Origin: Bdellovibrionales bacterium
GTDB taxonomy: Bacteria; Bdellovibrionota; Bdellovibrionia; Bdellovibrionales; UBA1609
Assembly: GCA_043764155.1 (NCBI GenBank)
Contig: JAYUKW010000001.1
Coordinates: 118,027-182,026, forward strand
Direction: 5' to 3'
Length of the DNA: 64,000 nucleotides
Shown: positions 2,195-50,038 of the stretch, piece after piece
How positions within the stretch are numbered: the first letter of the stretch is position 1
Layout of the letters: the number at the start of each line of letters is the position of its first letter
Position numbers and translations under genes: made by a program
The notes under the pieces: model-generated
The model's database searches: none
What the model was told of the DNA's origin: nothing
The model's input: only the letters and a program-made list of their open reading frames with translations

Positions 2195-3190
2195 ATGTTA
2201 AATTTAATTAAATTTCGAATCCTATTTATTCTGTTACTAAATTCCTCTTCTGCGCTTGCAACTAGTCTTGATACTAATCAATTAACAAGTGTAGAAAAAT
2301 GTAGTCATATTCTCACTTTGTATCCTGATGCCATTGAAAGTTTTGATGTTCAGAGCAACACATTAGTTTTTAAAAATGGACATCGTAGTTTTTGTGATGA
2401 TGGACAGGTTTACAATTTAATTCAAAATTTAGATTATCAAAAACAAATGTCCCAAGTCGATTTAAGCGATATTCTTTTACAAGCTTATCCAGATCATTAC
2501 ATGGCTCCAATAACAGAAAAGAATTACTCTCCAGGCCGATTTCGTCACGATCAACTTTTAATAAATACATATTTAAATATAAACGCCCTTTCTAAAACAG
2601 ATCTTCTAAAATCGGCCAAAGATGATCTTACAATTGACGATGTAAAAATCCTAGCTCGCTACTTACAAATGGAAATCGTAAAAGTTAAATTTCTTGGTTT
2701 TGATATTAACATGAATCAAAGAAATGGGGCTGCTGAAGCCCTTGCACGAGTAGGGCGGCGGTTAGAAAAAGATTTTCCCCAGGGGGCTAAATGGCTTATT
2801 TCAAATCGAAATATGTCTGGGGGATTTAACATGCGATTTATCAGCGGAACTAAAAGACTATCTTCTCATTCATGGGGGATTGCGGTCGATTTCACATTAA
2901 AAAATGCGACTCCAAATTTAAAATGGTTTGATTCCTACTGGAAGTGGATTGCCGTATGTGCACCAAACTTAAAATGTTCACCAGCAAGAACTGACGAAGG
3001 GGCCAAATATCGAAGAGATTTAAGTGAAGAACTTTTAGATGTTCAGATCTATCCCCTAAACTTCGACCACTTCCCCCCAGAAATTGTTCAAGTCTTTGCC
3101 GACGAAGGTTACATCTGGGGCGGTCACTGGCACCACTTTGATACAATGCACTTCGAGTACCGTCCCGAATTCTTCACCCATCAAAAATAG
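2195..3190 (+). CDS. secreted M15-family (LAS-type) zinc peptidase, probable peptidoglycan peptidase
   Basis: 331 aa; signal peptide; SSHSWGIAVDF and GGHWHHFDTMHFEY metal-ligand motifs; last codons and stop lie inside the palindrome arm. Confidence 0.7.
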   Translation: MLNLIKFRILFILLLNSSSALATSLDTNQLTSVEKCSHILTLYPDAIESFDVQSNTLVFKNGHRSFCDDGQVYNLIQNLDYQKQMSQVDLSDILLQAYPDHYMAPITEKNYSPGRFRHDQLLINTYLNINALSKTDLLKSAKDDLTIDDVKILARYLQMEIVKVKFLGFDINMNQRNGAAEALARVGRRLEKDFPQGAKWLISNRNMSGGFNMRFISGTKRLSSHSWGIAVDFTLKNATPNLKWFDSYWKWIAVCAPNLKCSPARTDEGAKYRRDLSEELLDVQIYPLNFDHFPPEIVQVFADEGYIWGGHWHHFDTMHFEYRPEFFTHQK

Positions 3191-3642
3191 TCCTACACTT
3201 ACTAATTCTTAAAAAAACTTATTTAAAGTCTATTTTGATTATAAATATAATTTTCATCATAGAATTTAAAATAGGCTCGTTGGCGTGAAGCCTTGCTCGA
3301 AATCTATTCTGGTTTTTATATAAATTTAAAGATCATTGGGACATTTAAAACAGGGCAGACCTTGTCATTCGCTTTGCAGATTAATTTTGTTCTCTAGACA
3401 TTGCTTAACAAACTATAATGGTTGTTTTAACTTATCCAGCAGAGCAAAGCTTCACGCCAACGAGCCTATTTTAAATGTCCTAATGATCTTTAAATTTATA
3501 TAAAAACCAGAATAGATTTCGAATGCAAGGCGAATGACAAGGTCTGTCCTATTTTAAATTCTATGATGAAAATTATATTTATAATCAAAATAGACTTTAA
3601 ATAAGTTTTTTTAAGAATTAGTAAGTGTAGGACTATTTTTGA
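3181..3642. repeat. nested quasi-palindrome E1 (modules A-B-C-D-loop-B'-C'-D'-A')
   Basis: Outer arms 3181-3275 vs 3548-3642 are exact reverse complements (95/95). Inner arms 3301-3354 vs 3465-3518 match 52/54. Cassette B ctcgttggcgtgaagc is at 3276-3291, rc copy at 3449-3464. Cassette D gcagaccttgtcattcgc is at 3355-3372, rc copy at 3530-3547 (17/18). Apical segment is 3380-3442. Confidence 0.95.
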
Positions 3643-4427
3643 CAGGTGGGGCAGAAGTAGCTGGATCGGTTGGACTGGGTGATTTTTTTAATTGTTGTTT
3701 GGCAGATATTGCATTTGGAATTTTCTTGGCCATAGACTTGCCAATGATTTTGCATATCGCCTTGTTCGCCGGCAACGTTTTTATAATCTCGAAGTGAGCT
3801 TCCACCTTTTTTAATGGCTTCATTTAACACATTCTTGGTTTCTGTAATGATATTAATCCAATCATTAAATTTTAATTTCGATGTTATTTTTGTGGGTTTG
3901 ATTTTTGTTTTAAAAAGAATTTCAGAGGCATAAATGTTACCTACGCCTAAAATATTTTTTTGATTTAAAATCCATGATTTTATTGGTGTGTTTGATTTTT
4001 TTGCTTTTGAATAAAAATCATTTGAATCAAGCTGGTCATGAATGGGATCGGGGCCAAAATTTTTAAATGTATTCTGATCAAATTTTAAAATATATCCAAA
4101 ACGTCTAGGATCATTGTAAATTAAATTTATATTACTCCATTCAATTACAACATGATCGTGTTTTATTGGTGCGTAAGTAGCTTCATATCGCCAGTGACCA
4201 GTCATACCTAAGTGTGAAATAAAATGATGAGTATTAGTTTTTAAAATTAAAAATTTACCACGACGATCAACAGATAAAATACTTTTATTTTTCAAGTCCT
4301 TTAATTCTCTTAAAGGTAGTGGGAAGCGCAAATCTTTTCTTAGGAGCTTAATTTCTTTGATTGCCTCTTTGGGCAACTGGTTTTGAATACCTAGTTTTAT
4401 AATTTCGACTTCAGGGAGTTCTGGCAT
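3633..4427 (-). CDS. mutM: formamidopyrimidine-DNA glycosylase
   Basis: 264 aa; MPELPEVE N-terminus; C-terminal zinc finger CNICQ...FCPTCQK; stop codon lies inside the E1 arm. Confidence 0.9.
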   Translation of the reverse strand: MPELPEVEIIKLGIQNQLPKEAIKEIKLLRKDLRFPLPLRELKDLKNKSILSVDRRGKFLILKTNTHHFISHLGMTGHWRYEATYAPIKHDHVVIEWSNINLIYNDPRRFGYILKFDQNTFKNFGPDPIHDQLDSNDFYSKAKKSNTPIKSWILNQKNILGVGNIYASEILFKTKIKPTKITSKLKFNDWINIITETKNVLNEAIKKGGSSLRDYKNVAGEQGDMQNHWQVYGQENSKCNICQTTIKKITQSNRSSYFCPTCQK

Positions 4428-6763: not shown

Positions 6764-6816
6764 ATATTTGCATATATAAAATGATTTTGTTATGTTTTTT
6801 TAAAAAGGAGAGCTTT

Positions 6817-8307
6817 ATGTCATCGAATTTATTAAATTTTGCATTAATTTGTCTTGTTTTAAGTCCACTAAGTCTACCATATTTAGTTTCTCAAAATTCT
6901 AAATCTACATTAAGTTTTGGAATTTACTTCGGCCCTATTTTAGCCCTTATTCTTTCAATTCAATCCTATGCTATAAATACACCGCTTATTTTAAATTCAA
7001 GAGCAGTTTTTTTACCTAATGAAAATTTAGGTTTTTACTTGGATATTTTGTCAGGATTTGTATTAAGCTTTGTTTTATTAATTGGCGCTGTGACTACAAA
7101 ATTTTCGTTCAGATACTTAGAAATAGATAAAAATAGAAATCTTTTTTTAAAATCAATATCATATGTCCTTTTTTCAGTTACGGTTATGCTTTTATCAGAT
7201 AACTTTATTCAATTTTTTGTATTTTGGGTTTTAACATCTTACTTTCTTCATAAGCTTTTGACTCATGTTAAAAATGATTCAGAGGCAGAAAGTGCGGCTC
7301 GTCAAAAGTTTTGGACTAGCAGATTAGGCGATCTATTTTTATTAATTTCAATATCTTGTTTTTATGTAATTTTTCGAAGTTTTAATTTTTCAGAATTAGT
7401 AAGAACTGATTTAATTCACAACTGGAATAATAAATGGTTACTAGATGTCGGATGCATATTTTTGGTTTTAGGTTCCATTACTAAGTCTGCACAATGGCCA
7501 TTCCAATCTTGGTTACCACTTACGATGAACACGCCCACGCCTGTTTCAGCTATTATGCATGCAGGGGTTATAAATTCTGGTGGTTATTTATTAATCAGAC
7601 TAAGTCCCCTCATGAATCAATCACATTTAAGTTTAGTATTTTTGACTCTAATAGGTGCTTTAACAGCAATTATTGGCGTCATGGTGATGTGGACCCAAAC
7701 TGATGTTAAAAAAAGTTTGGCCTATTCTACTATTTCACAGATGGGTTTTATGATGCTTCAAATTGGAGTTGGAGCCTATTCTTTAGCTTTGATTCATATG
7801 ATGGGCCATGCATTTTATAAAGCCTATTCATTTTTAACTATAGGACAGGTTGTAGATTATGGACGACTGAATCGTATTTTTGCATCTGAAAAATTGAAGT
7901 ATAATTTCAATTTTGCGTTTTCTATCCTCTTTGCTATACTGATGACAGGTGTTCTGTATTTAATTATTGATCCAAACTTTTCAAATAAGAACCAAGGCTT
8001 AGTGCTTTTAGGTATCTTAAGTCTTTCACTGTCACAAGTTCTACAAAATTCAAAAAATATATTAACGGGTTTAATAACTTGTGCTGCCATTTGTGTTCTT
8101 TACGGATTGATTTATAAAATTTCGATATTTACTTTTTTAGATGTTTTAAATCTCCCCAAGGGAATGGACTCAAGTATGTCCTTACTTATTGATTTTGTAT
8201 TAATCTTTGCTTTTTTAACTTTGTTGTTAATGCAAAGTCACTTTGTGTATCTAAATCAGCATCGTTTTTTTAGAAAAATCTATGTCAAATTATTAAATGG
8301 ATTTTAA
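6817..8307 (+). CDS. dabB: DabB, proton-conducting membrane subunit (NuoL/MrpA-like) of DAB inorganic-carbon pump
   Basis: Polytopic membrane protein; AQWPFQSWLPLTMNTPTPVSAIMHAGVINSGGYLL matches the NuoL/Mrp antiporter core; directly upstream of dabA. Start moved to the ATG at 6817 with a GGAG RBS (track ORF starts at 6781). Confidence 0.8.
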   Translation: MSSNLLNFALICLVLSPLSLPYLVSQNSKSTLSFGIYFGPILALILSIQSYAINTPLILNSRAVFLPNENLGFYLDILSGFVLSFVLLIGAVTTKFSFRYLEIDKNRNLFLKSISYVLFSVTVMLLSDNFIQFFVFWVLTSYFLHKLLTHVKNDSEAESAARQKFWTSRLGDLFLLISISCFYVIFRSFNFSELVRTDLIHNWNNKWLLDVGCIFLVLGSITKSAQWPFQSWLPLTMNTPTPVSAIMHAGVINSGGYLLIRLSPLMNQSHLSLVFLTLIGALTAIIGVMVMWTQTDVKKSLAYSTISQMGFMMLQIGVGAYSLALIHMMGHAFYKAYSFLTIGQVVDYGRLNRIFASEKLKYNFNFAFSILFAILMTGVLYLIIDPNFSNKNQGLVLLGILSLSLSQVLQNSKNILTGLITCAAICVLYGLIYKISIFTFLDVLNLPKGMDSSMSLLIDFVLIFAFLTLLLMQSHFVYLNQHRFFRKIYVKLLNGF

Positions 8308-8331
8308 TTTAAATCATCTAAAGGAGAAATT

Positions 8332-10827
8332 ATGATTCAAATACAATTTGATTCTAAAACTAAGAATTTTGATTCGAACATCCAGAATTTATTAAAAAAA
8401 TCGAATATTGTAGATGTAAAGCACTGTGTTCAATCTGTTAAGCAAAGATTAACTCCGGTATGGGATCTAAGAGATAATGTGGCAGTAAACCCTTTTTTTG
8501 GATTTAGGGATAAAAATTTTTTAGATACTTTATGTTTTCATGAGAGCTTAACTGGTAATAGTCTTTTACCTTCATATAAATATTTTAATTCCCTTTACAG
8601 ATCAGGAAAAATTACTGATGCAGATTTAAATCTAGCATTAATTGAATATAATAATAATTTCGCTAACACTGACAAAATAAGTCTACATGATCTTAAAGTG
8701 GCACTTGAGATAGGTCTTGAATCTGATATTGTTAAAATTAATTCAGGATCTGATGTTTATGATTTGCAAAATAAAACACAATGGACCCCTAAAGTTAAAA
8801 AACATATTTCTAAGTGGTTAAGTGCATACTTTGACGAAGGTCAATCTTTGTGGTCAATGCCAACTAAAAATCTTCGCCTTTTCACCGCTTGGAAAGAATT
8901 AGTGATTTACGACAAATCATTTAAAAAATTAGGATCTAAATTCAATAGTACTTTTTTTGGTTTGTCGGATCAGCCGTCAGAAGTAATTGAAAATTTATCT
9001 GAAAAGTTAATACAAAAATTTGATTTAAGTTCAGAACAACTTGAAATATATTTTTTTAAACTAATAAGTCAAATTCAAGGTTGGGCTTCTTTTGTTCAAA
9101 AGTTTGAATTCGAAGCGGCTCGAAAAAATCAAAATGATGATTTAATTAGAATCGGTGGATTTGAAGATATTTTAGCGATATGTCTCTGTTATGATTACAG
9201 TTTTCTTAATTTAGTAAATTTTGGACCTAAATTCATTTTAATAAATACTTCTTTTGATGAAATCATGACGAACGACAATGTAAAAAAAAATATTCTTCTT
9301 AAGGCTAGTGAAGATAATTATCGCAGCCAGCTATTATCAAAAATTAATGTTAATACTTTAACTGAAAAAAATAATTTTCCTGAAGCTCAAATGGCGTTCT
9401 GTATAGATGTTCGTAGCGAATTGATTCGACGTCATATTGAAAATTTATGTCCTCAGATTCAGACGATAGGTTTCGCGGGATTTTTCGGTATTTCGATGTC
9501 GCATAGGACTTTGGGCGCTTCTCATGCAGAACAACAGTGCCCGGTTTTACTAAATCCAGTTTGCGAGATTCAAGAAATATCTAAATCTAAACATTTAGGA
9601 ATAAAAATTAAAAATAAAATCAAAAATATTAATTTTTTAAAATTTTTAAAATCTGGTGTTAATTCAAGTTTCACTTTTGTAGAGACTTTTGGCTGGACAT
9701 ACATTTTTAAAATGATTAAGTCTAACCATTTCAAATGTAAGATAAATTTAAGTTTTGAACCACTTATTATTAAATCATCGAAAGATAATCAAAGAAGACC
9801 TGATCTAACATCCTTATCTTTAGATCAAAAAACTAAATTAGCTTTCGGAGCTTTAAAAAATATGGGACTCACATCAAATTTTGCTCCCTTTGTTTTTTTT
9901 ATGGGACATAAAAGTAAAACAGAAAACAACCCTCAATCTTCGGCTTTAGACTGTGGCGCTTGCGCAGGTCATAGCGGTTTGTCTAATGCTAGAACTTTAG
10001 CGGGCCTGTTAAATGATCTAGGATTGCGTGAAGAATTAAAAATGAACTATAAAATTGATATTCCATTAAACAGTTGTTTCATATCTGGAGTTCATATCAC
10101 AACAACAGATGATTTTGAATTTGATGAATATCATATTACAGACGCATCAACTTTAAAGTCTTTTTATAGTCTAAAAAATAAACTTAAATTTGCTCAAATT
10201 AAAACACTTAAAGAAAGATCAAAAAATTTTAATTATTGTGAAAATTTAAGCGACAAAGATTTAATTGAACAGATCCAAAATAAATCTAATGACTGGTCAG
10301 AGGTTCAGCCCGAATGGGCCTTAGCAAATAATGCGGCTTTTATTGCTGCACGACGAGAGCTAACTCGAGGTCTAGATTTGAACGGGCGTACTTTCCTTCA
10401 TAATTATGATGCCAAAAAAGATTTGGATCTAAGTATTTTAGAATTAATTATGACAGCCCCTATGATTGTCGCTAACTGGATTAATATGCAATATTACGTT
10501 TCCGCAGTAAATCCTAAGGATTATGGCAGTGATGATAAAACCTTACACAACATTGTAGGACAAATCGGATTAATCAGAGGAAATGGCAGCGACCTTTTGA
10601 TGGGTTTAAGTTTACAGTCCTTATTTAGAAATGGTCAGCTGATGCATCAACCTTTAAGGCTACAAGTTATATTAGAAGCGGCTACAAAAGATATGGATCA
10701 AATTATTTTAAAACATAAAATGGTCAAAGATTTAGTCGAGAATGAATGGTTAAATTTAATTTCAATATGTCCCGACTTTGGATCAAAAAAAATATACTGT
10801 AAGGGCGAATGGGTGCAATTAAATTAA
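8332..10827 (+). CDS. dabA: DabA (DUF2309), beta-carbonic-anhydrase-like subunit of DAB inorganic-carbon pump
   Basis: 831 aa; FCIDVRSE (CxDxR) and ALDCGACAGHSG Zn-site-like motifs typical of DUF2309; AGGAG RBS; paired with dabB. Confidence 0.85.
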   Translation: MIQIQFDSKTKNFDSNIQNLLKKSNIVDVKHCVQSVKQRLTPVWDLRDNVAVNPFFGFRDKNFLDTLCFHESLTGNSLLPSYKYFNSLYRSGKITDADLNLALIEYNNNFANTDKISLHDLKVALEIGLESDIVKINSGSDVYDLQNKTQWTPKVKKHISKWLSAYFDEGQSLWSMPTKNLRLFTAWKELVIYDKSFKKLGSKFNSTFFGLSDQPSEVIENLSEKLIQKFDLSSEQLEIYFFKLISQIQGWASFVQKFEFEAARKNQNDDLIRIGGFEDILAICLCYDYSFLNLVNFGPKFILINTSFDEIMTNDNVKKNILLKASEDNYRSQLLSKINVNTLTEKNNFPEAQMAFCIDVRSELIRRHIENLCPQIQTIGFAGFFGISMSHRTLGASHAEQQCPVLLNPVCEIQEISKSKHLGIKIKNKIKNINFLKFLKSGVNSSFTFVETFGWTYIFKMIKSNHFKCKINLSFEPLIIKSSKDNQRRPDLTSLSLDQKTKLAFGALKNMGLTSNFAPFVFFMGHKSKTENNPQSSALDCGACAGHSGLSNARTLAGLLNDLGLREELKMNYKIDIPLNSCFISGVHITTTDDFEFDEYHITDASTLKSFYSLKNKLKFAQIKTLKERSKNFNYCENLSDKDLIEQIQNKSNDWSEVQPEWALANNAAFIAARRELTRGLDLNGRTFLHNYDAKKDLDLSILELIMTAPMIVANWINMQYYVSAVNPKDYGSDDKTLHNIVGQIGLIRGNGSDLLMGLSLQSLFRNGQLMHQPLRLQVILEAATKDMDQIILKHKMVKDLVENEWLNLISICPDFGSKKIYCKGEWVQLN

Positions 10828-25088: not shown

Positions 25089-25100
25089 ATTGACGAACCT

Positions 25101-25467
25101 GTAAGTTTCTCTTTAAGCCGGATTCTGTAACTTTAAAAATCGTCACAATTTTTAAAATCTAACCATCATTCCTCTAGGATTAAAGTTACCTTTAACCTCA
25201 AGCAATCTACCCGAAAACTGGTGCGAGCCGCACTCATAGCGTTTCCCTATTTGACCTTGCTTCGCGCAGAGTTTTGCTGTTTTCACTCCAACAGCTCCCC
25301 GAAGATCTCCCGTTCCCGATCTAAGGATCATAGCCTTGGACATTCTCTCTGTTCCACTGTTCCTCATCTTACGATGGAGGGGCGTTACCCCATGCGCTGC
25401 TCTACGAAGTCCGGACTTTCCTCCAAAATGGTTTAACCCATTTCAGCGATGGTCTTTCAAAACTTAC
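25101..25467 (-). ncRNA. rnpB: RNase P RNA (bacterial type A-like)
   Basis: The - strand contains GGAGGAAAGUCCGGAC (CR-I/P4 5'), GGUAACGCC, CAGUGGAACAGAGAG, GCAAGGUCAAAUAGGG, GGGUAGAUUGCUUGAG, CCUAGAGGAAUGA and ACAGAAUCCGGCUUA (P4 3'). P1 pairs GUAAGUUU with AAACUUAC; P2 pairs GACCAUC with GAUGGUU. Confidence 0.93.
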
Positions 25468-25490: not shown

Positions 25491-25518
25491 GACCGAATGA
25501 CAAGGACTGATTTCCTAT
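25491..25518. repeat. solitary degenerate copy of cassette D (rc orientation)
   Basis: gaccgaatgacaaggactgatttcctat shares the 12-mer cgaatgacaagg plus ctg..tcctat with the D' regions of E1 (3530-3553) and E2 (39979-40000). Confidence 0.5.
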
Positions 25519-38969: not shown

Positions 38970-39060
38970 TTAAAACCCCTCGATTCTAATATTTTTCGGC
39001 GTTAAAACTTATTGTCTTAACTGGACTTTGGAAGAGCAGTTGAGATATTCTGTCTATATT

Positions 39061-39654
39061 ATGAAATGGATTGGTTTAACAGGATGTATGGGGTGTGGAA
39101 AATCCACAGTAGCCCAAATTTTAAGGCAAGATCATGATCTTGAAGTCATTTCAGCTGACGATGTGGCACTAGAAATTTTAAAAACGGACCAAGAGCTTCA
39201 GGACTACATATCTAAAAATTTAAATGTTGGCTTTGATCCCGACTTTAGTTTGTATCGATCAAAGATCTCGGCCAAAGTTTTTGGCAATCCAGAGGCCTTA
39301 AAAAAATATGAACAGATTTTTCATCCTAAGGTGAAACAATATGTAGCAGGACTTAAAGAAAAGCTTTCAAAAAATCAAGATCTTGCTTTTTATGATATTC
39401 CTCTCTTGTTTGAAAAAAACATGCAATCAGATTTTAGTGCCATTATCGGTGTCTTTGCTGATCATGATGTGCAAATGGCTCGACTTAAAGAGCGAAACCA
39501 ATGGACAGATGATCAAATTGCAGAACGCTTAAAACATCAGATTCCAAATAAAACCAAAATCGACCAATGTGATTTTATTATTTTTAACAACTCATCCTTA
39601 GATAGTTTGAAAACTCAAATCATCGACATCCTGGCTAAACTCGTCAGTCATTAA
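39061..39654 (+). CDS. coaE: dephospho-CoA kinase
   Basis: GLTGCMGCGKST P-loop right after the ATG at 39061 (the track ORF begins at a TTG at 39028); last 15 nt and stop lie inside the E2 arm. Confidence 0.85.
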   Translation: MKWIGLTGCMGCGKSTVAQILRQDHDLEVISADDVALEILKTDQELQDYISKNLNVGFDPDFSLYRSKISAKVFGNPEALKKYEQIFHPKVKQYVAGLKEKLSKNQDLAFYDIPLLFEKNMQSDFSAIIGVFADHDVQMARLKERNQWTDDQIAERLKHQIPNKTKIDQCDFIIFNNSSLDSLKTQIIDILAKLVSH

Positions 39655-40074
39655 AATCTCATTTACATAATATTTAATTTTTATATTTTAAAGAGATCTT
39701 CACAATTTAAAACAGGCTCGTTGGCATGAGGCCTTGCTCGAAATTCATTCTACATTCTATTTAAATTCAAAGATCCTTAGGACATTTAAAACAGGGCAGA
39801 CCTTGGCATTCGCTTTGCACAAGTTGGAAAAGTTCCAGCGAACTGGCGAGGGTGCGTAGCCCCTCGAAAGCCAGTGAGTGAACTAGACAGTAGCAAAGCT
39901 TCACGCCAACGAGCCTGTTTTAAATGTCCTAAGGATCTTTGAATTTAAATAGAATGTAGAATGAATTTCTAATGCAAGGCGAATGACAAGGTCTGCCCTG
40001 TTTTAAATTGTGAAGATCTCTTTAAAATATAAAAATTAAATATTATGTAAATGAGATTTTAATGGCTGACGAGT
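39639..40074. repeat. nested quasi-palindrome E2 (same architecture as E1)
   Basis: Outer arms 39639-39716 vs 39997-40074 match 77/78. Inner arms 39741-39795 vs 39914-39968 match 55/55. B is at 39717-39732, rc copy at 39898-39913. D is at 39796-39813, rc copy at 39979-39996. The apical segment 39821-39891 is a G module in - orientation. Confidence 0.95.
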
Positions 40075-40103
40075 GGTTGGCCACTCGATGTGAGGGATTA
40101 GTT

Positions 40104-40850
40104 TTACCAGGGTAAAATGGTGTGGTCGTAGTTTAAGAATTGGCCTTGGTTTTCAGGTTTTAAGTTTTCAATGACGTTAAAAATATTTTCTGCAGACTCT
40201 TTTGGTGTATGAATTTTATATTTTTTTTCAGCTGCTTTCATAAAGGGTTCTGACAGACGAGTTTGAGTGGTACCTGGATGAATTGTGACAACATACTTTT
40301 CTGTGCCTAAACGTTTAAATTCTAAGCTTAAATTTTTAATAAACATATTTAAAGCAGTTTTTGAAGCGCGGTACGAATACCAGCCCCCAAGAGAGTTGTC
40401 AGAAAGACTGGCCACCTTTGCAGATATTGCGGCAAACACGGCGTAGTGTTTATGTTTAAAGAACTCTTTTAAATACTTGGCAAAAAGCATTGTGGGAATA
40501 CTATTCACCAAAAAACTTTTTTTCATATTCTCAAGGCTAACCTCTTCGACTCGTCGTTCAGCAACTAAGCCTTCGATTTGTAAAGCGCCAATACAATTAA
40601 TAAATCGGTGAATTTCAGTTATACTTAATTCATGAAGCGTTGATTTCATATTCGAGAAGCCGTCTTCGTTTTCGATATCTAATAAAAACCATATTAAACG
40701 AGTTTGATATTTTGTTTGTAGTTCTTCCATTAGATTTGTGATTGTGCTTCGGTAAGTACCAATCACAATGTTTTCAGAATTTGCTTCTAAATAGGTTTGG
40801 CATAAACTAAGGCCTAACCCTTGACTTGCTCCGGCAATAACAATGTTCAT
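40104..40850 (-). CDS. short-chain dehydrogenase/reductase (CsgA/C-factor-like)
   Basis: 248 aa; IAGASQGLGLSL, YRASKTAL. Confidence 0.8.
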   Translation of the reverse strand: MNIVIAGASQGLGLSLCQTYLEANSENIVIGTYRSTITNLMEELQTKYQTRLIWFLLDIENEDGFSNMKSTLHELSITEIHRFINCIGALQIEGLVAERRVEEVSLENMKKSFLVNSIPTMLFAKYLKEFFKHKHYAVFAAISAKVASLSDNSLGGWYSYRASKTALNMFIKNLSLEFKRLGTEKYVVTIHPGTTQTRLSEPFMKAAEKKYKIHTPKESAENIFNVIENLKPENQGQFLNYDHTILPW

Positions 40851-47030: not shown

Positions 47031-47906
47031 ATGGTATCTGAAATTTTTAATCCCGAGTTGTGGACTACTGTAGAAGGTTTTAGTTTTTCAGATATCACTT
47101 ATCATCAGGCTAAAAATCAAGGAACAGTTCGAATTGCATTTAACCGCCCTGAGGTTCGAAATGCGTTTCGTCCGCAAACGGTGGATGAGCTTTACACCGC
47201 TTTAGATCACGCTAGACAAAATCCGAGAGTTGGAACTGTAATTTTAACTGGAAATGGGCCTTCCCCAAAAGACGCCGGATGGGCTTTTTGCTCCGGCGGG
47301 GATCAGCGGGTCCGCGGTGAATCTGGCTACCAGTACGATCCCTTATCTAAGGCCGGTCGTCTTCATATTTTAGAAGTGCAGCGCCTTATTCGCTTTATGC
47401 CAAAAGTTGTTGTGTGTGTTGTCCCTGGATGGGCTGTGGGGGGTGGGCATTCACTTCATGTTGTGTGTGACTTAACTTTGGCGAGCGTTGAGCATGCCGT
47501 CTTTAAGCAAACCGATGCTGACGTTGCTAGTTTTGACGGGGGATACGGCTCCGCATATTTAGCTAAAATGGTAGGACAAAAGAAAGCTCGCGAAATTTTC
47601 TTTTTAGGAAAAAGTTATAGCGCACAACAAGCGCTAGAAATGGGAATGGTGAACGCCGTTTTTAATCATAATGAATTAGAATCAGAAGCTTTAAAATGGT
47701 GTGCAGAGATCAATTCAAAAAGTCCAACTTCGATCCGAATGTTGAAGTATGCATTTAACTTAGCCGATGATGGAATGGTGGGGCAGCAACTTTTTGCAGG
47801 CGAAGCCACACGTTTGGCTTATGGAACAGAAGAGGCCAAAGAAGGACGGGATGCGTTCTTAGAAAAACGAGATCAAGATTTTTCTGAATTTCCATATCAT
47901 TTTTAA
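47031..47906 (+). CDS. menB: 1,4-dihydroxy-2-naphthoyl-CoA synthase
   Basis: 291 aa; crotonase fold; FCSGGDQRVRG; C-terminal DFSEFPYHF typical of MenB. Confidence 0.85.
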   Translation: MVSEIFNPELWTTVEGFSFSDITYHQAKNQGTVRIAFNRPEVRNAFRPQTVDELYTALDHARQNPRVGTVILTGNGPSPKDAGWAFCSGGDQRVRGESGYQYDPLSKAGRLHILEVQRLIRFMPKVVVCVVPGWAVGGGHSLHVVCDLTLASVEHAVFKQTDADVASFDGGYGSAYLAKMVGQKKAREIFFLGKSYSAQQALEMGMVNAVFNHNELESEALKWCAEINSKSPTSIRMLKYAFNLADDGMVGQQLFAGEATRLAYGTEEAKEGRDAFLEKRDQDFSEFPYHF

Positions 47907-48009
47907 AAACCCTCTGACCCTTTTTTCTGTCCAATCTGCGTCAAAAATTCATATATATTGGAATAATTTTTGACGCAGTTTGGACAGAAAAAAGGGTCAG
48001 AGGGTTTTT
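47905..48009. terminator. 45-bp-stem hairpin between convergent menB and the hotdog gene (bidirectional terminator candidate)
   Basis: 47905-47949 pairs with 47965-48009 with a single mismatch (47935/47979); 15-nt loop. The left arm starts within the menB stop codon. The right arm covers the last codons and stop of the convergent gene. Confidence 0.7.
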
Positions 48010-48479
48010 ATGCCGCGTTTTTTTAAAGATAAAGTCAGTTCAAAAGTCATGATATGGTCGTTTAAGTTAGAAACTTCGAAGGCTTTTCCACGAATAATTT
48101 TTTCTTCTCTTTCGCCAGAAAGTAAAGCTTTTGAGATCAGATCTTCAACATCTTTAGTTTGTTCGCAAATAAAATGAACATCACCTTCTGCTCGTTTTAA
48201 GAAGTCAGCTTTAAAATCTTTAAATAAAAAATTGATAGGCTTCTTTTTTAAAAAAACCAATTCCACAGCTTTAAGCGCACACGTCAACTCTGCGCCCACA
48301 GTCAAAGCCCCAAAGTACATAGCCCCTAAATGGTTTTTAGTTCTACGTTTAAGTTTAATTTCAACTACAGATCTTTTTTCACTAAGCTCTAAAACTCGTG
48401 GTCTCATAAATGCAATAATTGGAATCTTAAAAAAAGTTAACAAATAAATCATAAAACTTAATTTCGTTTCTGCTTTCAT
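47997..48479 (-). CDS. hotdog-fold thioesterase-like protein (DUF4442/YiiD_C-like)
   Basis: 160 aa from the ATG at 48479 (GGAG RBS). The track ORF extension to 48545 runs through an inverted repeat. Family assignment is by weak recollection only. Confidence 0.45.
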   Translation of the reverse strand: MKAETKLSFMIYLLTFFKIPIIAFMRPRVLELSEKRSVVEIKLKRRTKNHLGAMYFGALTVGAELTCALKAVELVFLKKKPINFLFKDFKADFLKRAEGDVHFICEQTKDVEDLISKALLSGEREEKIIRGKAFEVSNLNDHIMTFELTLSLKKRGIKTL

Positions 48480-48489
48480 ATTTACTCCA

Positions 48490-48606
48490 AAAAGTGCCAG
48501 GTTCCGTTTGCGAATTAATGTTGTTATTATCGATTTGGTATTCAATTTAAATGCATTTCAAACCATAACAAATGCGTTTAATCCACAAACGGAACCTGGC
48601 ACTTTT
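48490..48606. repeat. 21-bp perfect inverted repeat flanking a 75-bp spacer
   Basis: aaaagtgccaggttccgtttg (48490-48510) pairs with caaacggaacctggcactttt (48586-48606). The right arm abuts and overlaps the POT stop codon. Confidence 0.85.
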
Positions 48607-50038
48607 AGGTGGGTTCGGCGAGGTTGTGATCTTGTAGGAATGTTTTTTCTTTGTAGAAGTAGGCGATGATCATAAAGATGATTCCGGCCCAAAAGACCAT
48701 AGCGGTGAAAAACCAAAAGTAGTTCGCGCCGGCGAGGATATTAAAACCAAGGGCTTTGTCTTTGGCCACAAGACCATTGACGTTGGCCGTGACGATATTT
48801 CCTAAAGATATTGAAAACATAAATAAGGCCATAACAAACGACTTCATGCTGTTTGGTGCCTGAGTGTAAGAAAATTCTAAAGCTGTGATTGAAATTAATA
48901 TTTCAGCCGCAGTGATCAATACAAAAGCTAGAACCTGCCAAAGCATAGATGGTGTTGCACCGTTTTGAATCCACTGCTCTGTTATAGCGATAACAGCAAA
49001 TGAAGCTGCTGTTAGAAAAAAGCCAACACTGATTTTTCTAAGTGGAGTTACTTTTACCCTGCGTTCAAAGAAAGGATAAATAATTAAAGTAAAAAGTGGA
49101 ATATAAAGTAAAACTAAAACCGGATTTACTGCTTGAACTTGCGCAGGCAAAATAGTGAAGCTAGCAAAACCTAAATTCACAATACGATCAAGCTTGTCAG
49201 CTTGTAACACCCATGATGAGCCCGTCTGGTCGTAGAGGGCCCAGAATACAGCGATCACTAAATAGATAAGACCGAGTTTTAAAAGAGCAAAAATTCCGTC
49301 TCTGCTTTTTAGATCTTTTAAAAATGTAGCTCCGTCAGCAGGCATAGCTATGAACTCGTGGCGACCCATATAAAATATGACGGTCGCTACGAACATTAAA
49401 ATCCCAGGAATACCAAAGGCGACAGATGGACCATAAATCTCTAACATCCAAGGAATGATTAATATTGAGAAAAATGATCCAAAGTTAATAGACATATAAA
49501 AGTAACTAAACACTTTATCTATTAAATGTTTTTTACTAGCGTCGAACTGATCGCCAACATGCGCAGACACACAGGGCTTGATCCCACCAGAACCAATAGC
49601 GATAAGTCCCAATCCTACAGCAAGTAAAGTTTTGGGTTCAGCAAGAGTTAAAATAAACGGAACTTCCATTAAGGCTAAAACCAGATGTCCAACACAATAA
49701 ACCAGAGACAATCCAATAATCGTTTTATATTTCCCTAAAAATAAATCAGCCAGCAAAGCGCCAAATAGTGGAAAAAAATAAACTGCAGCAACAAAATAAT
49801 GATACCATTCAGAGGCTTCAGAACCGGTAAAAAAAGCATCCTTACCTTGGCTATCTAAAATAAACTTAGTCATAAAAATCATCAGAATAGCTTTCATTCC
49901 ATAAAAACTAAATCTCTCAGCAGCTTCATTCCCGATGATATAAAAAACCCCTTTAGGCATTTTATCTTTTGATGCACTAGTCATTTGATTTTGAGACTGG
50001 TTCGGCGTTTTATTATTGGTGCTACTAATTGAACTCAT
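48605..50038 (-). CDS. POT-family proton-dependent oligopeptide transporter
   Basis: 477 aa; GNEAAERFSFYGM (ExxERFxYYG-type) signature; about 12-14 TM. Confidence 0.85.
   Translation of the reverse strand: MSSISSTNNKTPNQSQNQMTSASKDKMPKGVFYIIGNEAAERFSFYGMKAILMIFMTKFILDSQGKDAFFTGSEASEWYHYFVAAVYFFPLFGALLADLFLGKYKTIIGLSLVYCVGHLVLALMEVPFILTLAEPKTLLAVGLGLIAIGSGGIKPCVSAHVGDQFDASKKHLIDKVFSYFYMSINFGSFFSILIIPWMLEIYGPSVAFGIPGILMFVATVIFYMGRHEFIAMPADGATFLKDLKSRDGIFALLKLGLIYLVIAVFWALYDQTGSSWVLQADKLDRIVNLGFASFTILPAQVQAVNPVLVLLYIPLFTLIIYPFFERRVKVTPLRKISVGFFLTAASFAVIAITEQWIQNGATPSMLWQVLAFVLITAAEILISITALEFSYTQAPNSMKSFVMALFMFSISLGNIVTANVNGLVAKDKALGFNILAGANYFWFFTAMVFWAGIIFMIIAYFYKEKTFLQDHNLAEPT

Follow-up and report, generated by a model that had tools for sequence, protein, structure and literature searches.

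Why should a long, almost perfect palindrome between two bacterial genes carry its conserved cassettes in crosswise rather than mirrored order? This question is raised by E1, a 462-bp intergenic palindrome in a 64-kb stretch of DNA (the window; ~34% G+C) from an uncultured Bdellovibrionales organism, where it lies between convergent genes for an M15 peptidase (2195-3190, + strand) and for Fpg (3633-4427, - strand). We find that E1 and a second palindrome in the window, E2, are copies of an undescribed, lineage-restricted family of intergenic hairpin repeats in uncultured Bdellovibrionales, and that each is built from an outer hairpin module whose apex holds a second, inverted module. It is this nesting that produces the order A-B-C-D-loop-B'-C'-D'-A'. 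The first-pass annotation, made from the letters of the window, had recognized the crosswise order correctly; its reading of E1 as one palindrome with swapped cassettes gives way to two oppositely nested modules, which are also found singly in relatives.

The geometry reported for E1 was reproduced, with 95/95 complementarity of 3181-3275 to 3548-3642 in the outer arms and a 52/54 match of 3301-3354 to 3465-3518 in the inner arms. In full extent, the outer arms span 101 nt (3175-3275/3548-3648; 2 mismatches, 99/101 in an inverted-repeat search) and the inner arms 58 nt (3297-3354/3465-3522; 2 mismatches, 97% complementary). Cassette B (3276-3291) is the exact reverse complement of 3449-3464, and cassette D (3355-3372) agrees with the reverse complement of 3530-3547 at 17/18 positions, with one change. 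The G+C fraction is 0.18 and 0.26 in the arms and 0.62 and 0.56 in the cassettes. The frame said to be common to the cassettes, TTTAAAAYAGG-N-YTTGC, occurs eight times in the window against 0.01 expected by chance, with four copies in E1, four in E2 and none elsewhere. E2 (39639-40074) repeats the order of E1 and lies between convergent genes for CoaE (39028-39654, + strand) and a short-chain dehydrogenase (SDR; 40104-40850, - strand). Measured against shuffled sequence, the folds of the two E1 strands have z scores of -29.6 and -32.6. No third copy was found within 10 kb on either side of the window. The assemblies are short-read metagenomes, and assemblers can produce perfect palindromes, so a fold-back or chimeric artefact must be considered. 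We regard it as extremely improbable, given that the E1 region recurs base for base in a contig of another assembly (ENA ERZ27314334 k141_1135479), from which the window is not derived because its coordinates would overrun the contig end. In addition, the window holds a second copy, three further species sequenced in unrelated projects (NCBI GCA_031412575.1, JGI and ENA) have homologs that share the core, and each of the two flanking genes runs through its outer arm to an in-frame stop.

The relatives reveal what the unit of the family is. Syntenic loci were fetched via Fpg and CoaE homologs, and with the window they bring the family to 12 modules in 8 elements (4 single, 4 double) from four species, the other three being called X, Y and Z here (Table 1; names such as L008 denote loci). 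Because relatives carry modules singly, the basic unit is one hairpin. For the same reason the inner module can be regarded as a free-standing unit; the resemblance of the E1/E2 inner arm to the arm of L008b, one of the two single modules of L008, is weak (a common AAAGATCAT...ATTTAAAAYARG; 81% over 48 aligned nt, z = 2.8 vs shuffles) and is not the basis for this conclusion. Each module has a near-perfect, AT-rich stem of 50-100 nt. Moving inward, this leads to an asymmetric internal loop in which a 5' CTCG lies opposite 7-8 variable nt, a first core helix of 7 bp (TTGGCRT/ATGMCAA), a purine-purine mismatch of GA(A) opposite GA (or AA), and a second core helix of 7 bp made of two variable pairs and YTTGC/GCAAR. 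The apex is either a loop of 4 to about 100 nt or an inserted second module. B and D represent a single motif, TTGGCNT-N5/6-YTTGC, in two diverged versions, and each B box faces a D' box across the apical stem in 12/12 modules. Open bubbles of 16/18 nt had been expected where B meets D'; however, in folds of the 12 module cores B and D' are mostly paired, TTGGCGT with ATGACAA or ATGCCAA and GC with GC, leaving only a 4 x 7 nt loop and the GAA/GA mismatch unpaired. By reading, some copies could form an AGGCT/AGCCT mini-stem around B, which fails in L008b.

Conservation is concentrated in this core. The 5' core CTCGWTGGCRYRAR and the 3' motif GARTGMCA are nearly invariant across species whose arms cannot be aligned, CTCG is kept in 11/12 modules (L069, the exception, has TTCT), and the purine-purine mismatch is retained in all 12, as 2x2 and 3x2 forms. 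In an alignment of the 12 cores with loops replaced by a GAAA placeholder, standard pairs fill 94.9% of cells vs 87.8% in shuffles, and 0/500 shuffles reach the observed value. Both sides have changed in 6 of the 15 core pairs, for example from CTTGC/GCAAG to CCTGC/GCAGG and from GC/GC through GG/CC to AA/TT, and sliding the partners by one to three columns as a control lowers pairing to 22-39%. Searching 259 kb plus a further 25 kb with a covariance model built on the core returned every single and inner module and no new one; the outer modules were missed because of their long inserts. The relatives thus supply further copies with conserved cassettes and mirrored stem changes, and the suggestion that the cassette asymmetry is maintained rather than decaying is upheld by cassettes conserved in four species whose arms no longer align. 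These observations bear on an alternative in which a hairpin MITE (a miniature transposable element with inverted repeats) acquired a chance second copy in its loop and B/D' is a functionless, neutral heterology that arm conversion cannot cross. Neutral heterology should drift like the arms, yet the 5' and 3' core motifs hold nearly still where the arms have diverged beyond alignment, helix positions change only with compensation, and the mismatch persists in every module. Although nested insertion of hairpin repeats is common, a heterology of 16-18 nt can block conversion tracts, and the four doubles may go back to one origin (as doubles, E1 and E2 are paralogs), we consider this alternative very unlikely.

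The core also distinguishes its two strands. Among imperfect cells, the strand that carries CTCG has 7 G·U and 6 G·A combinations, and the reverse pattern (A·C) is seen in 1 cell only; the other strand would have C·A or C·U at those positions. Consistently, the CTCG (sense) strand is more stable than its complement in 10/10 modules, by 2.4-9.5 kcal/mol with RNA parameters, and the sense fold is also the more stable in 6/6 modules with DNA parameters. Judged from sequence, this bias points to a functional form that is single-stranded, RNA or single-stranded DNA (ssDNA), and read on one strand. The double elements extend the pattern, as antiparallel nesting is found in 4/4 doubles; each strand of a double carries exactly one sense core because the outer and inner modules are sense on opposite strands. 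The bias of G·U and G·A to one strand argues against a purely duplex or cruciform role. Of the three roles that had been put forward for E1, an RNA, an ssDNA substrate and a cruciform, which sequence alone does not separate, the first two are therefore favored over the last.

A duplex-DNA element would have to take the form of facing sigma-54 (-24/-12) promoters or of a cruciform or duplex protein site, and we hold this to be highly improbable. The likeness of TTGGCAT-N5-TTGC to the consensus TGGCAC-N5-TTGC is real in one place, with cassette D of E2 (39796-39818) reading TTGGCATTCGCTTTGCA, a good sigma-54 consensus with correct spacing. GG at -24 together with the required GG-N10-GC spacing is nevertheless present in that one motif instance only: all B boxes are one nt too long (11 nt), and most of the correctly spaced D boxes have GT, not GG. 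The one-nt difference in TTGGC-TTGC spacing between B and D in most modules could be read by a duplex-binding protein, but the one-strand G·U and G·A combinations would be left unexplained. AT-rich, perfect arms favor cruciform extrusion. In the doubles, extrusion would be unfavorable with loops of 70-100 nt.

In contrast to the core, the arms match within a copy rather than between copies. They are 96-100% complementary within an element, whereas E1 and E2 share 82% identity in the inner arms and 66% in the outer arms (z = 2.5), and the arms of E1 have no significant similarity to those of the species X element that occupies the same fpg/peptidase junction. Where the inner arms of E1 and E2 differ, at ~ten positions, nearly every change is carried by both arms within each element. 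All five arm mismatches inspected in these two elements are transitions without strand preference, and the arms are nearly free of G·U pairs. This behavior is DNA-level concerted evolution, not RNA-type compensation. Arms that are unalignable between species, 96-100% complementary within elements and extended into native stop-codon regions imply re-copying from arm to arm.

This process has reached coding sequence. The Fpg C-terminus CxxCQK* is conserved in all close Fpg homologs, and the peptidase ends in ...EFFTHQK* in the window vs ...EFFY* in the species X ortholog; the THQK* tail of the peptidase stems from the mirror of the ..CQK* end of fpg across E1. Similarly, the conserved ...SH* end of CoaE starts the left arm of E2 and is mirrored on its far side, and gene ends lie inside arms in L008 (the LMWPc tail), L069 (the last 23 nt of LMWPc) and L002 (the last 13 nt of a UvrA-like gene). 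Almost all elements have at least one end that overlaps a stop codon or lies 0-5 nt from one. In species X, the fpg-junction element has its interior flipped with respect to the window copy. Inverted repeats that undergo template switching have their arms homogenized and their spacers inverted (PMC8604942; PMC7202029), and we infer that this process operates on these arms.

Our results provide a rationale for a tentative model of function, which we hold with somewhat less than even confidence: that the module works as RNA in read-through 3' untranslated regions (UTRs), as a stable 3' hairpin read by a lineage-specific factor, with the double serving both transcripts. In this model, DNA-level copying, through replication template switching or gene conversion between inverted repeats, would keep the arms perfect and let them grow outward until coding constraint halts it, and selection on the recognition site of a trans-acting factor would keep the core asymmetric. 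It would be the single-stranded form that acts, most likely RNA: read-through from the flanking genes, usually convergent, would place the element in their 3' UTRs, where its very stable 3'-end hairpin may block read-through and exonucleases or be processed. A lineage-specific protein or RNase could bind or cut its purine-rich internal loops, and antiparallel doubling would make one element work for both converging transcripts. The placement of the family, with 8/8 elements abutting a gene 3' end and 7/8 between convergent genes, is consistent with this model. Several observations weigh against it. Transcription, processing and a binding factor are all inferred for these elements. Arms nearly without G·U have a perfection that is a property of DNA and is silent on RNA, and copying between arms at the DNA level would also yield covariation in the core, which leaves the wobble and purine bias as the only strand-specific signal. 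Counts from the 12 modules are not independent, given their phylogenetic relatedness, and the rule that the inner module is always inverted comes from 4 doubles that may descend from one ancestral double. By scans and reading, most modules lack a following U-tract, and so are not classical intrinsic terminators. Finally, single modules offer the sense core to one of two converging genes only, and CTCG is lost in the most distant member, L069.

The presence or absence of elements among relatives is important for the main alternative, which we judge somewhat unlikely, namely a non-autonomous mobile ssDNA element resembling repetitive extragenic palindromic (REP) sequences or REPINs. In this case CTCG and the imperfect core hairpin would be the recognition or cleavage site of an HUH/Y1 enzyme (RAYT- or IS200/IS605-like) or a similar enzyme, the module would be copied to new intergenic sites, the antiparallel double would be a composite like a bacterial interspersed mosaic element (BIME) with one substrate per strand, and effects on neighboring genes would be a by-product. 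The arrangement of a conserved tetranucleotide at the base of an imperfect hairpin whose mismatches are conserved follows that of tagged REPs and IS200/IS605 ends (PMC3733652; PMC3333891), REP dimers are frequently heterodimeric (PMC3733652), and the strand bias holds with DNA energy parameters. Some sites are occupied in one species and empty in others: the L008b junction is element-free in L007, L067, L069 and the window genome, and the E2 junction carries no element in L061, L062 and L063, with the genes nearly abutting in L063. Paralogous copies of a single genome can be similar over their whole length, as for L008a, the other single module of L008, and L063 (86%, z = 7.8), including shared termini (TGTAATGAAGTGYGAAAATTTT). 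At the fpg 3' site, however, a family member follows fpg directly in 4/7 species examined, and a member retained there in four species (54-71% Fpg identity) looks like long-term residence, not roving; L007 and L070 have the next gene within 2-9 bp of this site, and L067 has an ordinary GC hairpin with a T-run terminator instead. B and D are not self-palindromic units of 20-40 bp, and the tag is neither GTAG nor CGTC. The sense strand is the C-rich strand of the 20-kb locus in 4/4 single modules (both in L008, L063 and L069), which is opposite to the expectation for enzymes acting on the lagging-strand template, although the skews are small and n = 4. No transposase, integrase, reverse transcriptase or Y1/HUH gene was found among the window open reading frames (ORFs) checked or in the Pfam tables of the fetched loci, which is weak evidence at ~260 kb across several genomes.

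A further reading, which we consider unlikely, joins the arm and core observations in a self-maintaining palindromic element. Its arms, re-copied continuously, would grow outward to the point of rewriting neighboring C-termini, its small, asymmetric and strand-specific core (the CTCG tag, the helix with G·A and G·U, and the GA(A)/GA mismatch) would be the substrate of a dedicated enzyme acting on a folded single strand, and the double would present that substrate on both strands. The enzyme might be an ssDNA recombinase, an HUH enzyme, or an RNA-processing or RNA-guided system.

Searches for known families agree with the initial impression that E1 is no known REP, ERIC, BOX, Correia, attC or ordinary terminator sequence, as borne out by Rfam, terminator, plasmid and phage searches. 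No Rfam 15 family reached its gathering threshold in the window or L008, and at E <= 10 E1 and L008b gave sub-threshold long-hairpin matches to plant and animal miRNA precursors only. A blastn search of E1 against plasmids and phages returned no match. The 20-mer TTTAAAAYAGGCTCGTTGGC had 4 matches in 185,579 species genomes, 1 real (L002) and 3 by chance; a strict 23-mer had 0 matches in JGI metagenomes; the 46 loci found with a degenerate 22-mer (L013-L058) have no arms and are about as many as a hand estimate predicts by chance; and a scan of a viral collection gave 2 chance matches. The family therefore appears rare or narrow in public collections, with pattern scans yielding one true relative and otherwise chance. 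Within the genomes that carry it, elements are found at one per 14-42 kb (2 in ~84 kb of the window genome, 3 in ~41 kb of species Y and 2 in ~39 kb of species X), and all inverted repeats with arms of at least 28 nt and >90% complementarity in the relatives' scanned loci belong to the E1 family. The gene content around the elements is housekeeping or unannotated (window ORFs checked by Pfam, and precomputed gene tables for the same genome and relatives).

Several specific identities were also rejected. A scan found no intrinsic terminator for the whole element, whose arms are 18-26% G+C and in which a TATTTTTG run stands at the base in E1 only; counts from sigma-70 promoter and terminator scans were not above those in shuffles. 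By reading, there are no R''/L''...L'/R' boxes and no GTTRRRY at the ends as in an integron attC site, no integrase is present, and the neighbors are syntenic housekeeping genes. Hammerhead, K-turn, loop-E and CsrA-site readings of the core, compared by eye with their consensus, do not fit.

Table 1. Coordinates of the E1 and E2 features in the window, and of family members in relatives
Feature	Location	Strand	Description
E1 outer arm A (left)	3175-3275		Outermost 16 nt (3175-3190) are the last peptidase codons and stop, mirroring the fpg 3' end
E1 outer-module core, 5' half	3276-3296	+	CTCG 3276-3279, TTGGCGT 3280-3286, GAA 3287-3289, GCCTTGC 3290-3296; cassette B and frame
E1 inner arm C (left)	3297-3354		82% identical to E2 inner arm
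E1 inner-module core, 3' half	3355-3377	-	GCAAAGC, GA, ATGACAA, GGTCTGC; cassette D and TTTGC
E1 central loop	3378-3443		AT-rich; not conserved with E2 loop
E1 inner-module core, 5' half	3444-3464	-	CTCG, TTGGCGT, GAA, GCTTTGC; GCAAA and cassette B'
E1 inner module, covariance-model match	3362-3464	-	46.7 bits
E1 inner arm C' (right)	3465-3522
E1 outer-module core, 3' half	3523-3547	+	AT bulge 3523-3524, GCAAGGC 3525-3531, GA 3532-3533, ATGACAA 3534-3540, GGTCTGT 3541-3547; frame and cassette D'
E1 outer arm A' (right)	3548-3648		Outermost 16 nt (3633-3648) are the native last fpg codons and stop (..CPTCQK*)
E2 outer arm A (left)	39639-39716		First 16 nt are the native coaE end (..LVSH*); 77/78 complementary to 39997-40074
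E2 outer-module core, 5' half	39717-39737	+	CTCG TTGGCAT GAG GCCTTGC
E2 inner arm C (left)	39740-39795		56/56 complementary
E2 inner-module core, 3' half	39796-39818	-	Cassette D and TTTGC
E2 central loop	39819-39892		Own G+C-rich hairpin; unrelated to E1 loop
E2 inner-module core, 5' half	39893-39913	-	GCAAA and cassette B'
E2 inner module, covariance-model match	39803-39913	-	46.8 bits
E2 inner arm C' (right)	39914-39969
E2 outer-module core, 3' half	39970-39996	+	Bulge, GCAAGGC, GA, ATGACAA, GGTCTGC
E2 outer arm A' (right)	39997-40074		Last 16 nt are the mirrored coaE 3' end, in the spacer before the SDR gene
Species X (GCA_031412575.1; Fpg 71% identical), double	L006 9543-9863		fpg/peptidase junction, as E1
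Species X, double	L002 7307-7700		Adjoins UvrA-like gene
Species Y (JGI contigs; Fpg 64%), single	L008 10874-11073		78 nt past fpg stop
Species Y, single	L008 13301-13465		Apical loop is GAAC only
Species Y, single	L063 14260-14476
Species Z (Fpg 54%), diverged single	L069 10796-10983		Begins at first base after fpg stop

The layout of a single module is illustrated by L008 10874-11073, which reads arm, CTCGATGGCGCGAAGG, CTTGC, a 32-nt loop, GCAAG, CCGAGTGACACTCGCCTG and second arm. At the apex, the central loops look like variable cargo, given that the AT-rich loop of E1 is unrelated to that of E2. The E2 loop contains its own G+C-rich stem-loop at 39843-39880 (ACTGGCGAGGG...CCCCTCGAAAGCCAGT), and the innermost level of the L002 double is a further plain hairpin. 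Central loops show no significant homology once multiple comparisons are allowed for: 10/300 shuffles equal the best pair (E1 vs L008a, 12/14). Another hairpin, small and G+C-rich (CGAGTGG-TTGG-CCACTCG, 40070-40087), straddles E2's right boundary, between the palindrome and the dehydrogenase stop codon.

Other repeats and genes were observed in the same loci. In L061 and L062 the coaE/SDR junction holds a different repeat, AAARGTGCCAGGTTCC. This belongs to a second short family, AAARGTGCCAGGTTCC(G/T), which is common to three species and often forms inverted pairs; its sites are 48487-48518 / 48578-48609 in the window, 6211, 6265 and 11231 in L061, and 5323, 5364, 5438, 10372 and 10626 in L062. 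The window also contains, at 47904-48010, a near-perfect hairpin unrelated to E1, with 46-nt arms, a 15-nt loop, a G+C-richer sequence and a T-run on both strands, which gives it the look of a bidirectional terminator. The enoyl-CoA hydratase/DUF4442 junction is filled by this hairpin, which begins at the stop of one gene and provides the other gene with its final four codons and stop (...KKRGIKTL*, where L063 has ...KKRGK*); species Y carries an E1-family module at this junction. An 18-mer similar to cassette D (TCAGTCCTTGTCATTCGG, 15/18) is found at 25493-25510 (- strand), 27 nt upstream of the RNase P RNA gene (25098-25466, - strand). About 0.01 chance matches are expected for it; it has neither the YTTGC frame nor arms and is not aligned as a -35 box. 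Upstream of the fpg region, a DabA/proton-antiporter-like gene pair at 6781-10827, conserved in species X, is a putative DAB inorganic-carbon uptake system.

The E1 family would add a structurally distinct group to the known REP, BIME and MITE repeats, from a poorly studied lineage of predatory bacteria. One element offers a natural experiment, in which homogenization at the DNA level perfects the arms and overwrites gene ends and selection preserves an asymmetric core of 40 nt. The mirrored gene ends show directly that a growing palindrome can remodel protein C-termini, and the conserved core could be used as bait for the protein or RNase that reads it. In addition, the family suggests an answer to a question left open for REPs, the preference for heterodimers over homodimers (PMC3733652), as heterology may make a palindrome strand-specific.

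Among known systems, REP, BIME and REPIN sequences are the closest in setting, being likewise intergenic, just downstream of ORFs and mostly between convergent or co-directional genes (PMC3733652; PMC3116915; PMC3333891). REPs, those between convergent genes included, serve as 3' UTR terminators and stabilizers (bioRxiv 10.64898/2026.03.23.713779), which is the analogy behind the RNA model. REP dimers are often heterodimers of two different facing units (PMC3733652), and the E1 family resembles them in having two related, non-identical motifs that are inverted and fold into a larger imperfect hairpin. Tagged REPs carry an unpaired GTAG or CGTC tetranucleotide at the end of the palindrome (PMC3733652); the E1 family also has a conserved unpaired tetranucleotide at one end of its paired core, but it is CTCG. 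Persistence in a lineage with presence and absence between relatives is a further likeness, as is the alternating orientation of units within BIME composites. Unlike REPs, the boxes of the E1 family are not self-complementary, G+C-rich units of 20-40 bp, with B pairing D' rather than itself, and they are embedded in AT-rich, near-perfect arms of 50-100 nt that are specific to copy and species and homogenized within each copy. The composite is nested in the apex, not tandem as in BIMEs. REPs typically number more than 100 per genome and are associated with a single-copy RAYT (Y1/HUH transposase) gene that the repeats flank; no RAYT is known for the E1 family.

Hairpin MITEs, such as the Correia/NEMIS elements of Neisseria, the enterobacterial ERIC/IRU and the pneumococcal RUP, are co-transcribed with their neighbors and have orientation-dependent effects on mRNA processing and stability. 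Comparing descriptions rather than sequences, the E1 family shares with them a length of 100-200 bp (longer in doubles), self-complementarity, an intergenic position and ends that can supply or overlap stop codons, and like them it shows insertion polymorphism, the L008b and E2 sites being unoccupied in relatives. MITE copies, however, have in common terminal inverted repeats that match an autonomous IS, and direct target duplications, whereas the E1 family is conserved centrally and its termini, common to L008a and L063, are not shared between subfamilies or species. By reading, no direct repeat is evident at the ends of L008b, L063 or E1, and the flanks are mirrored instead. The arms are also far more perfect than those of old MITE copies.

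Small conserved asymmetries, such as extrahelical bases, make the strands or duplex arms functionally different in integron attC sites, the CTX-phage attP site and the left-end hairpin of the parvovirus MVM, with its GAA/GA bubble. The E1 core is likewise a small conserved asymmetry in an otherwise palindromic site, but its loci have no R/L boxes, GTTRRRY core, nearby integrase, Xer-type context or replication initiator, and the copies occupy intergenic stretches of the chromosome with housekeeping genes on both sides. Quasipalindrome correction and template switching (PMC7202029; PMC8604942) share with the E1 family the copying of one arm from the other, its extension into adjacent sequence, including coding sequence, and the inversion of the interior, and the coding palindromes of Nematomorpha mitochondria (PMC6649704) similarly have arms that are kept identical and reach coding sequence. 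Template switching is nonetheless a mutational process and not an element family, and it explains the arms but not the conservation of the core. The E1 family is thus distinguished by a strand-specific central core, by long, locus-specific, re-copied arms that invade gene ends, and by the antiparallel nesting of its modules.

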